A stretch of 64,000 nucleotides of DNA from Escherichia coli (GTDB taxonomy: Bacteria > Pseudomonadota > Gammaproteobacteria > Enterobacterales > Enterobacteriaceae): assembly GCF_022846255.1 (NCBI RefSeq), contig NZ_AP025682.1; one strand, 5' to 3'. A program made the position numbers. Below are positions 11,601 to 17,600 of this stretch, piece by piece. Each line of letters starts with the position of its first letter. The stretch's first letter is position 1.

Positions 11601-14600
11601 GGGATTGAGCGAATTAGCGCCAGGCGTCAAACCAGCCAAGCCCTTCTTCGGTGAGGCCACGAGGTTTGTATTCACAACCGATCCAGCCCTGATATCCCAC
11701 TTCATCGAACAGGCGGAACAGCCACGGATAGTTGATTTCTCCATCGTCCGGTTCATGTCGATCAGGTAGTCCGGCAATTTGTACGTGCGCATATTTCCCG
11801 GCGTAGTCGCGGATTAAATGTGTCAGGTTGCCATCTACTTTTTGCGCATGGAAAGTATCTAGTTGAATAAAAACGTTATCTCGCGCAACCTCTTCAACAA
11901 TAGCCAGTGCCTGATACTGGCTGGAGAAGAGATAATGAGGCTTAACGCCGGGGCTGAGTGCTTCAACCAATATTCGCTTGCCGTGTGGCGCAAAGCGGTC
12001 GGCAGCGTAGCGGAGATTATCAATAAATACTGCCCGGTACCGTTCAGCATCTTCGCCAGCGGGCACGACGCCTGCCATCACATGGACTTGTTCACAATTG
12101 AGCGCCAATGCATATTCCAGTGCCAGGTCGATGTCTGCGCGTGCTTCGTGCTCACGTCCGGGAAGGGCGGATAATCCCCATTCTCCCGCATTAATATCTC
12201 CGGGAGCGGTATTGAACAGCGCCAGCGTCAGATGGTTTTGCTCCAGTTGCTTTTGGATTTGCAGGGGGGAGTAGTCATAGGGAAACAGAAATTCCACAGC
12301 ATCGAACCCGGCTTTTCGCGCTGCGGCGAAGCGTTCAATAAAAGGCACTTCGGTGAACATCATGGATAAATTAGCTGCAAAACGAGGCATTGCATTAACT
12401 CCTTAATTCCGCAATTTCACCTGCGGTCAGATAACGGATCGGGCGGTCACCGAGAATAAAAATCAGCTTTGCCGTTTCCTCCAGCTCTTCCATATTGTTG
12501 GCGGCTTCTTGCAGGCTTTCACCGCAAACCACTGGGCCATGATTTGCCAGTAAAAAAGCCTGATTGTCTGCTGCCAGTTCCGCCAGATCCTGTGCGATGC
12601 GTTTATCGCCCGGTCGGTAATAGGGCACCAGCGGGACATTACCCATCCGCATCACCACGTATGGTGTGAACGGCCGAATAACGTTATTGCTGTCCAGCCC
12701 TTCCAGGCAGGAAAGCGCCGTCGACCACGTACTGTGCAAATGCACTACCGCTTTACAGCGCGGATTGTTGCGATACAGCGCCAGATGAAAGAGCACCTCT
12801 TTCGAGGGTTTGTCACCACTTAACCATTCGCCATCCGCGGTGACTTTGGAAAGCCGCTGCGGATCGAGATTGCCCAGGCATGAACCTGTCGGTGTCGCCA
12901 GTAAATTCCCGTCAGGTAAAAGCAGCGACAGATTGCCAGCCGAACCGGTTGCATATCCGCGCTGAAAGAATGAACTGGCAATCCGCGTCATCTCCTCTCG
13001 CAAAGACTGCTCTACTTTTGCGAAATCGCTCATGATAAAAACTCTCTTTGGGCTCGTGAAAAAAAGGCTTCATCACCGAAGTTGCCAGATTTAAGGGCGA
13101 GTGAGACAGGCTTATCCAGTGCGTTTACCCACGGCACGCCGGGGGAAATGGTTGGGCCAATATGAAAACCTTTTATTCCCAGGCTCTGTGTGACTACGCC
13201 GGAGGTCTCACCGCCTGCGACAATAAAGCGTGTCACGCCTTCCGCTGCTAACCGCGCCGCTAGTTGAGAAAACAGTGTTTCCACTGCCTGACTGGCTTTT
13301 TGTGCACCGTATTGCTGTTGAATTGCTGCCAATGCGTCAGTGCTGGCGGTGGCAAAAACAAGTGGAGCAAGTACACTTTCCTGGCCCAGAACCCACTCTG
13401 CCAGCTCGTGTGCATAAGCGGCCAGAGTTTCGGTTGAGAGGCAGCGTGCCACATCAACCTCACGGGCTGGTGCAATTTGACGGTAATGTGCCACCTGGCG
13501 GTTGGTCATTTGAGAGCATGAACCGGAGAGCACTACGCCGCGCCCAGCGAGCGGACGCCCTGCTTCGCGAGCCTGGTTACCGTTTTCTTGCGCCCACTGC
13601 CGGGCCAGGCCAATCGCCAGACCAGAACCGCCCGTTACCAGTGGGGCATCGCGCAAGGCTTCCCCCTGAATTTCCAGATGGTGTTCGGTCAGCGCATCAA
13701 GCACCGCGTAGCGATAGCCCTCTTGCTGTAAGCGAGCCAGCTCCTGACGAACGGCTTTCACACCTTGTTCGAAAACATGCGCTGAAACGACGCCGCAGCG
13801 CCCTGTGGATTGCGCTTCAACCAGACGGGGAAGATAGCTGTCGGTCATGGGATTTACCGGGTGATAGCGCATTCCGGATTCGGCCAGCAGTTGATTCATT
13901 ACGAACAAATACCCCTGATAAACCGTACGTCCGTTGACTGGCAGGGCCGGAGAGAAGACCGTAAACGGTGTGTCGAGAGCATCCATTAATGCATCGGTAA
14001 CCGGGCCGATATTCCCTTTCGCCGTACTGTCGAAAGTAGAGCAGTATTTGAAATAGATCTGTTTGCAACCTTGCTGTTGCAACCAGCTCAGAGCCGCCAG
14101 CGATTGCTGTGTGGCTTCAACCACCGGACAGGAGCGCGTTTTCAGGCTGATCACCAGTGCGTCGATTGCTTCCGGCATTTTACCTGTTGGAACACCGTTA
14201 ATTTGTACCGTTGGTAGACCGTTTTCCACCAGAAAACTGGCGATATCCGTCGCGCCGGTAAAATCATCGGCGATAACGCCAATCTTGATCATGATTTCGC
14301 TCCCGGTAGGGTGATGCCAGAGAAAATCTTGATAACTGCGCTATCGTCTTCTTTCCCGTAACCCGCGTTACTGGCGCTGGTGAACATATTCAATGCTGTT
14401 GAGGCCAACGGCAGCGGGAAGTGCAGGGCTTTGGCGGTATCGGCAACCAGACCAAGATCCTTAACAAAAATATCGACGGCTGAATGCGGGGTGTAATCGC
14501 CATCCACCACATGACGCATCCGGTTTTCGAACATCCATGAATTTCCGGCGGCATTGGTCACGACGTCATACATCACATCCAGCGGGATCCCCGCACGGGC

Positions 14601-17600
14601 TGCAAGCGCCATCGCTTCGGCTCCGGCAGCAATATGTACACCCGCTAACAACTGGTGGATAATTTTTACGGTCGAACCCAGTCCCGGTTCTGCTCCGATG
14701 CGATAAACTTTTCCGGCAACGGCTTCCAGCACGGGTGCTAGTCGTTCAAAGGCAATATCGCTACCGGAGGCCATGACAGTCATTTCACCGTTAGCGGCTT
14801 TTACCGCACCACCAGAAACCGGCGCATCCAGCATTTCCAGACCGAATCCAGCCAGAGCGGTAGCAATTTCTTGCGCATCAGCACTGGCGATAGTGGAAGA
14901 AACCATTACTGCCGTACCGGGTTTCAGATGTTGTGCAACGCCTTTTTCACCAAACAGCACCTGTTTAACCTGGGTCGCATTGACCACCAGCACCAGCAGA
15001 GCGTCCAGTTTTTCGGCAAACGTCGCGGCGTTATCAGAAACTCCGCAAGCACCAGCCTCTTTCAACGTAGCGCAGGCATTGCTGTTCAGGTCTGCGCCCC
15101 AGGTAGAAAGACCTGCGCGGACACATGACAGTGCTGCTCCCATTCCCATTGACCCTAAGCCAACGATACCGACATGAAACTCCGATCCCGTTTTCATCTG
15201 CTCTCCTTGTTAATTTAAGTGATATTTTGTTTGATGTTGTGAATATAAGCGCGGAAAGATAACGATATGGTGAGCTGATTCACAAAAATTAACATTGTGT
15301 GTTATTTTATGTGAACTAAGCGTTAGTTGCGCCGCGCACGTTTCGCAGGCAAATAGCGTAGAATGTCAGCAGGACAAAGGAAGGAGCAAAAGTTGATACC
15401 CGTAGAGCGTCGCCAAATCATCCTTGAGATGGTAGCTGAAAAAGGCATTGTTAGTATTGCTGAACTAACGGACAGAATGAATGTGTCACATATGACCATT
15501 CGTCGGGATTTACAAAAACTGGAGCAGCAGGGAGCCGTTGTGCTGGTGTCCGGGGGCGTCCAGTCTCCGGGACGCGTGGCGCATGAACCTTCTCATCAGG
15601 TAAAAACTGCGCTGGCAATGACGCAAAAAGCGGCTATTGGCAAGCTGGCGGCAAGTCTTGTTCAGCCGGGACGTTGTATCTATCTGGATGCGGGAACGAC
15701 CACGTTAGCGATTGCACAGCATCTGACTCACATGGAGCCACTCACAGTGGTTACTAACGACTTCGTTATTGCGGACTACTTGCTCGACAACAGTAATTGC
15801 ACAATTATTCACACTGGCGGCGCAGTGTGTCGGGAAAACCGTTCCTGTGTTGGGGAAGCCGCTGCGACCATGCTGCGTAGCCTGATGATTGATCAGGCTT
15901 TTATTTCTGCATCGTCATGGAGTGTGCGGGGGATCTCTACGCCAGCAGAAGATAAAGTCACGGTGAAACGGGCGATTGCCAGTGCCAGCCGCCAGCGAGT
16001 TTTGGTCTGTGATGCGACGAAATATGGACAGGTGGCGACATGGCTGGCGTTACCATTAAGCGAGTTTGATCAGATCATTACTGACGATGGTCTGCCGGAG
16101 AGTGCCAGCCGCGCGCTGGCGAAGCTGGATCTCTCTTTGCTGGTAGCGAAAAATGAATAATGACCTGCAATAACGCCGGGTTACTCATGCTTCACAGAAG
16201 AAGCATGAGACTACTTTATTTTATAAAATGACAGCCGCCCGCTTTTCGGCGATCCGGTATCTATATAAATCTGGTTAGCGAACGTCTGAATGTTATCAAA
16301 CATCATATGACCAAATATAAAGAAGTCGGCGCCGTTTATTTTTTGTAATTCGCTATTAAGTGATTTCTGCACACGATCAACAGGCCAGAGTAATTCGCTC
16401 TCCGCTATTTCTTTGCCAAACTGATACTCCTTCCCCGGATAATCTGCATGTGCGATGACATATTTTATGGTGTCGTTAGTGATTTCAATAATATGTGGAA
16501 GGTGATGGAATTTCAGCAACAGATCTATTGCCTCTTGTTGCTCTGAATCATTTAAATCGAAAAACCAGTCACCACCGCTGGCAAGCCACATATTTCCATC
16601 GCCAGTTTCGAATGCATCAAGCGCCATCGCTTCGTGGTTGCCTTTGACGGAGATAAACCAGGGCTGGTTTAACAGGCGCAGCACGTTAAGACTCTCGGGC
16701 CCACGATCGATGTTATCGCCTACCGAAATAAGTAAGTCGGTTTCAGGACAAAAAGAGAGTTGATGTAAGCGGGATTGTAATAATTGATAGTCACCATGAA
16801 TATCACCAACGGCCCATATATGGCGATAGTGATGGGCATTGATTTTTTGGTAGCGTGTAGATGGCATGGTTTTACCCTGTAAAATAAGCTTTCCTATTAT
16901 ACAGGGTATTTTTATTTGATTCGTCAGTTGTCGTTAATATTCCCGATAGCAAAGGACTATCGGGAATTATTATTACACCAGACTCTTCAAGCGATAAATC
17001 CATTCCAGCGCCTGACGCGGAGTCAGTGAATCCGGGTCGAGGTTTTCCAGTGCCTCGACCGCAGGCGAAGTTTCTTCCGGTACGGACAGCAAAGACATTT
17101 GTGTACCATCCACTTGCGTAGCAGCGGCGTTCGGCGAAATGCTTTCCAGCTCACGCAGTTTTTGCCGTGCGCGCTTAATAACCTCTTTTGGCACACCCGC
17201 CAGAGCTGCAACCGCCAGGCCGTAGCTTTTGCTCGCTGCGCCATCCTGCACGCTATGCATAAAGGCAATGGTGTCGCCGTGCTCCAGTGCATCGAGATGC
17301 ACGTTGGCGACGCCTTCCATTTTCTCCGGTAACTGGGTCAGCTCGAAATAGTGGGTAGCAAACAGCGTCAACGCTTTGATCTTATTTGCCAGATTTTCCG
17401 CACATGCCCACGCCAGCGACAGACCATCGTAAGTAGACGTTCCACGCCCGATCTCATCCATCAACACCAGACTATATTCGGTGGCGTTATGTAAAATATT
17501 GGCGGTTTCGGTCATCTCCACCATAAAGGTTGAACGCCCGGAAGCCAGATCATCCGCGGCACCTACGCGGGTAAAGATACGGTCAATCGGGCCAATCTCG

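Follow-up and report, generated by a model that had tools for sequence, protein, structure and literature searches.

The degradation of L-threonate in four enzymatic steps was reportedly established by Zhang et al. in 2016 for orthologues of the enzymes considered here. The acid is converted into 2-oxo-tetronate, 3-oxo-tetronate, 3-oxo-tetronate 4-phosphate and finally dihydroxyacetone phosphate (DHAP) by the successive action of LtnD, OtnI, OtnK and OtnC, with Escherichia coli given as the example of the four-step route (PMC12540250). The clusters of Zhang et al. 2016 (as cited in PMC12540250, PMC10580937) share the proteins LtnD, OtnI, OtnK (the former DUF1537) and the class II aldolase-type OtnC with the locus that we describe here, found in a stretch of 64,000 nucleotides of E. 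coli DNA (contig NZ_AP025682.1, assembly GCF_022846255.1; the window from here on). The pathway clusters have DenD, whereas the window is without it and has a GntP-family permease as transporter. In E. coli K-12 (ygbI/ygbJKLMN, b2735-b2740) the genes, their order and their orientation are the same, with protein identities of 98-99%.

Positions 10161-16160 of the window correspond to the ygbI / ltnD-otnK-otnC-otnI-ygbN locus that E. coli has in its rpoS-mutS region, and the genes follow the order rpoS, flavodoxin-family gene, metallo-beta-lactamase (MBL)-fold hydrolase gene, ygbN, ygbM (otnI), ygbL (otnC), otnK, ltnD, ygbI (divergent), pphB and mutS. Matches to the segment 9000-18000 were found in 5418 of 5426 complete E. 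coli genomes, and the best of them, at 99.5% identity, include phylogroup B2 strains such as the uropathogenic strain 536. This is an ordinary E. coli locus; the locus itself, its repressor, the CRP site, the ygbI start and the adjoining polymorphism have all been published already. Taken together, the data make it very probable that this is the chromosomal L-threonate catabolic locus of E. coli in the intact form of natural isolates, organized as a single, probably CRP-dependent operon repressed by YgbI and with a 3' end derived from an islet. What we add is modest, a nucleotide-level model of four operator boxes for YgbI and the finding that otnK is frameshifted in the reference strain K-12, and its significance goes little beyond annotation hygiene.

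Gene content and substrate

All six open reading frames (ORFs) are free of internal stops, and the six proteins score above the curated NCBIfam equivalog cut-offs over essentially the whole model (Table 1). Five of the six ORFs are equal in length to those of K-12 MG1655 (98-99% protein identity), the exception being otnK, which is full-length here. OtnK covers positions 1-417 of the 418 of NF043035 and carries the SBD_N as well as the NBD_C domain of Pfam, the latter matched over 1-168 of 168. LtnD has NAD_binding_2 together with NAD_binding_11, as in the beta-hydroxyacid dehydrogenase fold, OtnI has AP_endonuc_2, with the xylose-isomerase-like TIM barrel, and OtnC, by its matches to NF043034 and Aldolase_II, belongs in a four-step L-threonate cluster. 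YgbI has an N-terminal HTH_DeoR domain (PF08220) and a C-terminal DeoRC sensor domain (PF00455), and NF040890 is aligned over 1-253 of 253. The initial annotation of this DNA had described the five catabolic and transport genes and the divergent DeoR regulator as intact, and this is borne out, with no pseudogenization found on careful alignment in any of the six genes of this window. The range that it gave to the cluster (11614-16160) leaves out ygbN (10161-11525), although it names this gene. RefSeq names OtnI/YgbM (11614-12390) an 'HPr family phosphocarrier protein' via NCBIfam NF007441, which looks like a misnomer given the xylose-isomerase-like TIM barrel and the match to the 2-oxo-tetronate isomerase equivalog.

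The K-12 otnK differs from the one found here. A deletion of 1 bp in a run of five C (window 13141-13145; K-12 locus L002, 7336-8502) makes K-12 OtnK diverge after residue 384 and stop at 388, with the loss of 36 residues of the nucleotide-binding domain, whereas the otnK of the window codes for 420 residues and has an ATGA overlap. The allele with four C was found in 370 of the 5426 complete genomes, those sampled being all K-12-type laboratory strains or genomes of K-12 size, and the allele with five C in 3801, BL21 among them. The 91-bp gap between ygbK and ygbL in the K-12 annotation is a consequence of this frameshift, which distorts the annotation of the operon into three units. It may also account for the fact that the phenotypes seen so far are limited to promiscuous ones on tartrate.

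Going by the orthologues, LtnD would oxidize L-threonate to 2-oxo-tetronate, OtnI would isomerize the latter to 3-oxo-tetronate, OtnK would phosphorylate it and OtnC would decarboxylate the OtnK product to DHAP; YgbN, judging from its family, would import the acid. A tblastn search of the whole window with the Salmonella DenD (a protein that scores 451 bits against NF043036, cut-off 325) gave nothing better than E=1.4. As far as the sequence tells, only the entry step for L-threonate is encoded, with no dedicated entry for D-erythronate. Because denD is absent, naming the E. coli cluster for D-erythronate is unwarranted, and of the double label L-threonate/D-erythronate that had been proposed we retain the first half, backed by four equivalogs, and drop the second (no denD, tblastn E>1). 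The 88-nucleotide spacer between otnI and ygbN was considered as a remnant of denD and discarded; an E. coli-type permease after a spacer of 73-288 nucleotides is common to Serratia, Pectobacterium, Dickeya, Erwinia and Pantoea.

Some data weigh against L-threonate as the substrate. Growth of E. coli on this compound and its turnover are extrapolated from the orthologues, the phenotype described for the K-12 ygbI deletion is growth on L-tartrate (PMC8464067), and ygbI mutants arise when K-12 evolves on m-tartrate. These tartrate phenotypes, the only ones reported for K-12, could mean that E. coli uses the locus physiologically for another C4 acid (a tartrate isomer or a related compound) and that L-threonate is the substrate of the orthologues only, and the permease of the E. 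coli-type operon does differ from the Salmonella type (33-34% identity). We consider this improbable. The four enzymes all exceed the cut-offs of equivalogs built around the characterized threonate pathway, the tartrate work used K-12, in which OtnK is truncated, and the authors of the tartrate study themselves term that activity promiscuous.

Table 1. Features of the ygbI-ygbN locus and of the adjoining variable segment, in window coordinates.
Feature	Position	Strand	Description
ygbN	10161-11525	-	GntP-family permease, 454 residues, putative L-threonate importer; NF007332 825 bits (cut-off 524)
otnI (ygbM)	11614-12390	-	2-oxo-tetronate isomerase, 258 residues; NF043033 397.8 bits (cut-off 325); 254/258 identical to K-12
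otnC (ygbL)	12395-13033	-	NF043034 335.3 bits (cut-off 250); Pfam Aldolase_II
otnK (ygbK)	13030-14292	-	3-oxo-tetronate kinase, full-length, 420 residues; NF043035 596.3 bits (cut-off 350)
ltnD (ygbJ)	14289-15197	-	L-threonate dehydrogenase, 302 residues, first gene of the operon; NF043037 474.2 bits (cut-off 350)
ygbI	15393-16160	+	DeoR-family repressor, 255 residues, TTG start; NF040890 480.5 bits (cut-off 400)
Terminator-like hairpin 3' of ygbI	16184-16209	+	between convergent ygbI and pphB; folding z-score -6.4
Candidate box 1, TGTTAATTTAAGTGA	15208-15222	+	predicted ltnD 5' leader, 10 nucleotides from ATG; position conserved in 12 genera
Candidate box 2, TGTTTGATGTTGTGA	15228-15242	+	spans predicted ltnD start; overlaps last -10 base (15242)
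Candidate box 3, TGTTAATTTTTGTGA (inverted)	15280-15294	-	shares TCACA with CRP site; imperfect palindrome with box 4
Candidate box 4, TGTTATTTTATGTGA	15300-15314	+	only in the group of Escherichia, Salmonella, Scandinavium, Entomohabitans and L008 (a further enterobacterial genome)
CRP site, GGTGAgctgatTCACA	15269-15284	.	centre 15276.5; same site CRP-bound in vitro in K-12 (PMC12871828)
ygbI -10 hexamer TAGAAT	15359-15364	+	mapped in K-12 (PMC2760140); transcription start about 15371-15372
GC-rich 7-bp hairpin	11559-11576	-	in the otnI-ygbN spacer, without U-tract
Hairpin 3' of ygbN	10065-10099	-	13-bp stem and 9-nucleotide loop, then UUUCACUUU on the ygbN strand; 58 nucleotides after the ygbN stop
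rpoS-ygbN variable segment ('pattern III', B2-type)	8070-10172	.	2103 bp, GC 0.405; replaces 59 bp of K-12
Flavodoxin-family gene	8199-8750	-	within the islet
MBL-fold hydrolase gene	8975-10018	+	within the islet, convergent with ygbN

Control of the operon

In K-12, chromatin immunoprecipitation with exonuclease digestion (ChIP-exo) located one YgbI site, in the ygbI/ygbJ spacer, and deletion of ygbI raised ygbJ, K, L, M and N by log2 5.55, 5.15, 5.09, 4.62 and 3.95 (PMC8464067); the divergently encoded DeoR-family YgbI, shown in K-12 to repress the operon, would do the same here. Genomic SELEX (systematic evolution of ligands by exponential enrichment) puts RNA polymerase and H-NS in the same spacer (PMC3946193), and a CRP footprint was obtained there in vitro on taTGTGAatcagaTCACCata (Footprint-seq table, PMC12871828). 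The spacer of the window differs from that of K-12 at 6 positions, and the four candidate boxes described below, the CRP site and the ygbI promoter are all retained.

The length of this spacer follows from the start of ygbI, which is TTG 15393 (255 residues) and not ATG 15363 (an ORF of 265 residues). The K-12 transcription start was mapped at +9 relative to that ATG, the -10 being CGTAGAAT, and the true start of the gene was put 30 nucleotides further on, 21 nucleotides 3' of the transcription start (Mendoza-Vargas et al., PMC2760140). In the window the ATG overlaps the -10 hexamer TAGAAT and it is absent in other genera, and the TTG is preceded at the proper distance by a Shine-Dalgarno (SD) sequence, AAGGAG (15381-15386). 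YgbI orthologues have 253-256 residues with a TTG or GTG at the aligned start position, NF040890 aligns from residue 1 of the 255-residue protein, and the -10 is kept as GCGTA[GA]AAT in six of the seven genera aligned, the exception being Scandinavium. The ATG is ruled out by the overlap with the -10, the mapped K-12 start and its lack of conservation. With the TTG, the divergent spacer measures 195 bp (15198-15392), and the figure of 165 bp (15198-15362) in the initial annotation rests on an obsolete ygbI start. Its suggestion that an AT-rich divergent region holds the operator was sound: the GC content is 0.395 for the spacer and 0.317 for 15198-15320, versus 0.528 for the window, and the K-12 ChIP-exo data already show the operator there at ChIP resolution.

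The ltnD promoter is probably CRP-dependent and of class II. The CRP site has nine of the ten half-site bases of TGTGA-N6-TCACA, its half-sites are conserved across the genera compared, and its centre lies at about -41.5 from a predicted start near 15235, for which the predicted -10 would be TATATT (15247->15242, minus strand). This -10 is kept as TAnAnT across genera, as read from the alignment, and an AAGGAG SD sequence precedes the ltnD ATG. A generic promoter scan, which gave no more matches than shuffled sequence, was not relied on, and 7900-17000 had no Rfam match at E<=1.

The spacer contains four copies of the pattern TGTT-N7-GTGA within 107 bp, i.e., four of the six exact matches in the 64 kb, with about two expected. 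We have compared the orthologous spacers of E. albertii, Entomohabitans, Salmonella, Scandinavium, two more enterobacteria, Serratia, Pectobacterium, Dickeya, Erwinia and Pantoea. Over 12 genera, boxes 1-3 are located at +10-14, +24-34 and +76-86 from the ltnD start codon, and boxes 2 and 3 are at +30-34 and +82-86 in all but Entomohabitans. Box 1 is degenerate in Entomohabitans and boxes 2 and 3 in Pantoea, and in Salmonella boxes 3 and 4 make up a perfect 16-bp palindrome. The invariant columns of the multiple alignment are the boxes, the GTG of the left CRP half-site, GTGAATATAAGCG (the complement of the -10 TATATT), the ygbI -10, the SD sequence and the start codon; conservation is lacking from box 4 to the ygbI -10. 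Run over the window and 12 other loci (about 230 kb), a weight matrix derived from the boxes scored at least 14 bits only upstream of ygbI. At one of the 12, the locus of Yersinia pseudotuberculosis, which was outside the matrix-building set and has lost the operon, such hits were likewise found only upstream of ygbI. The boxes are likely to be YgbI operators. The Yersinia protein itself (62% identity to YgbI), left without the catabolic operon and with two box-like sites upstream (L012, 8863-8960), is either an orphan autoregulated repressor or a decaying remnant.

With YgbI placed on these boxes, CRP and RNA polymerase would be kept off the promoter. The inverted pair formed by boxes 3 and 4 would lie over the CRP site's right half and the -35 region, and the direct pair, boxes 1 and 2, 20 bp apart, would cover the start site and the leader. 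As in other DeoR-family repressors, a loop or oligomer might connect the two pairs across the 52 bp that separate them. Relief would presumably come from a pathway metabolite binding the DeoRC sensor domain, by analogy with DeoR-family members likely a phosphorylated intermediate. We lean, with some reserve, towards a model in which this four-box array represses through exclusion of CRP and RNA polymerase, perhaps aided by looping, and its conservation goes back to the common ancestor of Escherichia, Serratia, Pectobacterium and Pantoea; with the OtnK of K-12 crippled, natural isolates may in addition grow on L-threonate where K-12 cannot.

Several points count against the box model, and chief among them is the ChIP-exo interval of K-12 (2859304-2859334, in an older genome version). 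It corresponds to window 15315-15345, abuts box 4 without overlapping any of the boxes, and the DNA under it is not conserved. Besides, the box pattern was derived from the same sequence, so the statistics within the window are post hoc, and the independent evidence consists of the conservation across genera and the Yersinia locus. The ltnD start site is a predicted one, and conservation of boxes 2 and 3 could partly belong to the -10 that the former abuts and to the CRP bases that the latter shares. One might then place the operator under the ChIP-exo interval and let the boxes serve CRP, RNA polymerase elements or H-NS nucleation, which agrees with the ChIP-exo coordinates, with the overlap of box 3 and the CRP TCACA, with the position of box 2 next to the -10 and with the presence of H-NS in the spacer by genomic SELEX (PMC3946193). 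This alternative seems to us unlikely. Across genera no part of the spacer is less conserved than the interval, though YgbI is 58-87% identical there, and the same 15-mer appears three or four times, one of them inverted, at fixed positions in 12 genera, a recurrence that fits one dimeric or tetrameric regulator and not CRP or a -10 alone. No other known element overlaps box 1 or box 4. A call of 31 bp adjoining box 4 is within the positional error of the method, and we regard the offset as an error of this kind in the peak call.

Scanned for the boxes, the dicC promoter, which yielded YgbI in a pull-down (PMC12132413), has no hit of at least 8 bits, only TGTTA-type half-sites, and supports neither side. 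In the literature YgbI was also recovered in a yciR-promoter pull-down without regulatory effect, and a YgbI box proposed at dgcZ had no effect either. The three cases look like nonspecific binding to AT-rich DNA.

The five genes would be transcribed as one unit from a sole promoter upstream of ltnD. Overlaps of 4 nucleotides (ATGA) had been proposed for the operon, and we found them at two of the four junctions, ltnD/otnK (14289-14292) and otnK/otnC (13030-13033); otnC and otnI are separated by a 4-nucleotide gap, with AAGGAG inside the end of otnC, and otnI and ygbN by the 88-nucleotide gap, with a GC-rich hairpin that is possibly an attenuating or processing element. The otnK/otnC overlap of 4 nucleotides is found here and in most other genera. 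In the K-12 ygbI deletion the derepression declines monotonically along the operon and is still about 15-fold at ygbN, upstream of which no genus scanned has a box. The simplest reading is one ltnD-to-ygbN transcript, because ygbN is derepressed without a box of its own, the gradient is smooth and the genes from ltnD to otnI are tightly joined. Against it, the K-12 annotation and Gao et al. split the operon into ygbJK, ygbLM and ygbN (PMC8464067). Three units of this kind (ltnD-otnK, otnC-otnI and ygbN), with internal promoters and a ygbN 3'-end formation independent of the ltnD promoter, would suit the 91-bp ygbK-ygbL gap of K-12, the hairpin-bearing spacer ahead of ygbN and the indirect effect that Gao et al. 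propose for ygbLM and ygbN (PMC8464067), but are very unlikely, the gap being an artefact of the K-12 frameshift (in the window and all other genera, otnK either overlaps otnC or abuts it) and all five genes being derepressed in a smooth gradient with a YgbI box before ygbN nowhere.

The rpoS-proximal end and the flanking DNA

In this strain the 3' end of the operon (ygbN codons 452-454, stop and likely terminator hairpin) comes from the B2-specific segment of 2.1 kb. Alignment with K-12 shows that homology on the rpoS side ends at 8069, in the T-run of the rpoS terminator, and resumes at 10173. In K-12 rpoS is 93 bp from ygbN, which has its own terminator, whereas in the window 2.1 kb of other DNA separate the two and ygbN has another C-terminus. 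The segment has been published as pattern III of the o454-nlpD region, which is nearly confined to phylogroup B2 (PMC4209514), and we found it as a single chromosomal copy in 1042 of the 5426 complete genomes (19%), with identities of at least 99% in 1041. The junction on the ygbN side is inside codon 452, and the last three codons and the stop (10161-10172) are islet DNA. The gene of the window ends in ...TGG CTC GTC ATC TAA (LVI*), while K-12 and a pattern IV strain have ...TGG GCG GTA ATT TGA (AVI*) and then a strong terminator hairpin. The C-termini of the outgroups, ...WLVM* in Pectobacterium and ...WLAV* in Serratia, settle neither form as ancestral.

Between ygbN and the convergent MBL-fold gene, the hairpin located at 10065-10099 is the sole terminator-like structure. 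It replaces the terminator of K-12 and pattern IV and is likely the intrinsic terminator of ygbN, with folding z-scores of -4.3 (plus strand) and -2.1 (minus strand). The initial annotation had placed an islet with a converging transcript against the transporter end of the operon, and this is what the low-GC segment of 2103 bp, with its MBL-fold gene and its hairpin with a 13-bp stem, amounts to. Its suggestion that the islet stem-loop could affect the 3' end of ygbN holds in a stronger form, with the junction in codon 452 and the sole terminator-like hairpin belonging to the islet. In B2 strains the variable segment supplies both the last codons of ygbN and its terminator. No repeats, integrase or insertion sequence were found marking the segment 8070-10172, and the islet is likely exchanged by homologous recombination in the flanks. 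At the other junction, the hairpin of the rpoS terminator (8024-8069) is retained, and the T-run is T8 here versus TTTTCTGTG in K-12.

On the other side of the locus, pphB (16211-16867) has a low GC content (about 0.43) and is missing from the ygbI-mutS interval of Scandinavium (L013) and of L008, where ygbI abuts mutS; it may be a further lineage-specific insertion in this hotspot. Positions 1-19536 of the window are 99.3% identical to the B2 strain 536, and the 5' part of mutS (18001-19536) accumulates 39 mismatches per kb. The stretch ygbA-fhlA-hyp-hyc-asc (19500-40000) is only 98.6% identical to the best of the 5426 complete genomes. Possible readings are a boundary of recombination located at mutS and an origin of the window in a lineage that is poorly sampled. 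A 9.3-kb contig (L003, RKCM01000024.1) in an 'Oscillospiraceae' metagenome-assembled genome codes for a YgbI 98% identical to that of E. coli, and is probably an E. coli contamination of the bin.

Comparison with related clusters

Two types of operon 3' end are found in Enterobacterales. In E. coli (window 10161-11613), Serratia, Pectobacterium, Dickeya, Erwinia and Pantoea otnI is followed by a spacer and ygbN. The other type, found in Salmonella, Scandinavium and L008, has otnI-denD and a GntP permease of 496-499 residues that is 33-34% identical to YgbN (L007 2726-5169, L008 2730-5194, L013 2765-5199). Between E. coli and Serratia the identity is 79% for YgbN and 65-67% for OtnI and OtnK, and this closer relationship of YgbN hints at a mosaic history of the operon.

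The Salmonella enterica cluster (ygbI-ltnD-otnK-otnC-otnI-denD-gntP) has enzymes 79-86% identical to those of the window and four boxes at the same offsets. It differs in the presence of denD, in a permease of 498 residues only 34% identical to YgbN and in its position relative to mutS and rpoS. In Brucella, VdtR is a DeoR-type repressor of a cluster with ltnD, otnK, otnI, denD and otnC that is strongly derepressed when the regulator is deleted (PMC10580937). There the regulator is inside the cluster, denD is present and the transporter belongs to the major facilitator superfamily; the comparison with the window covers gene content, gene order and regulation. As for the adjoining polymorphism, pattern III as described for B2 strains (CFT073), with a 2.1-kb rpoS-proximal segment carrying c3302-c3304-type ORFs beside ygbN (o454), shows no material difference from the segment found here. 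To that description we add that the junction on the ygbN side is within codon 452.

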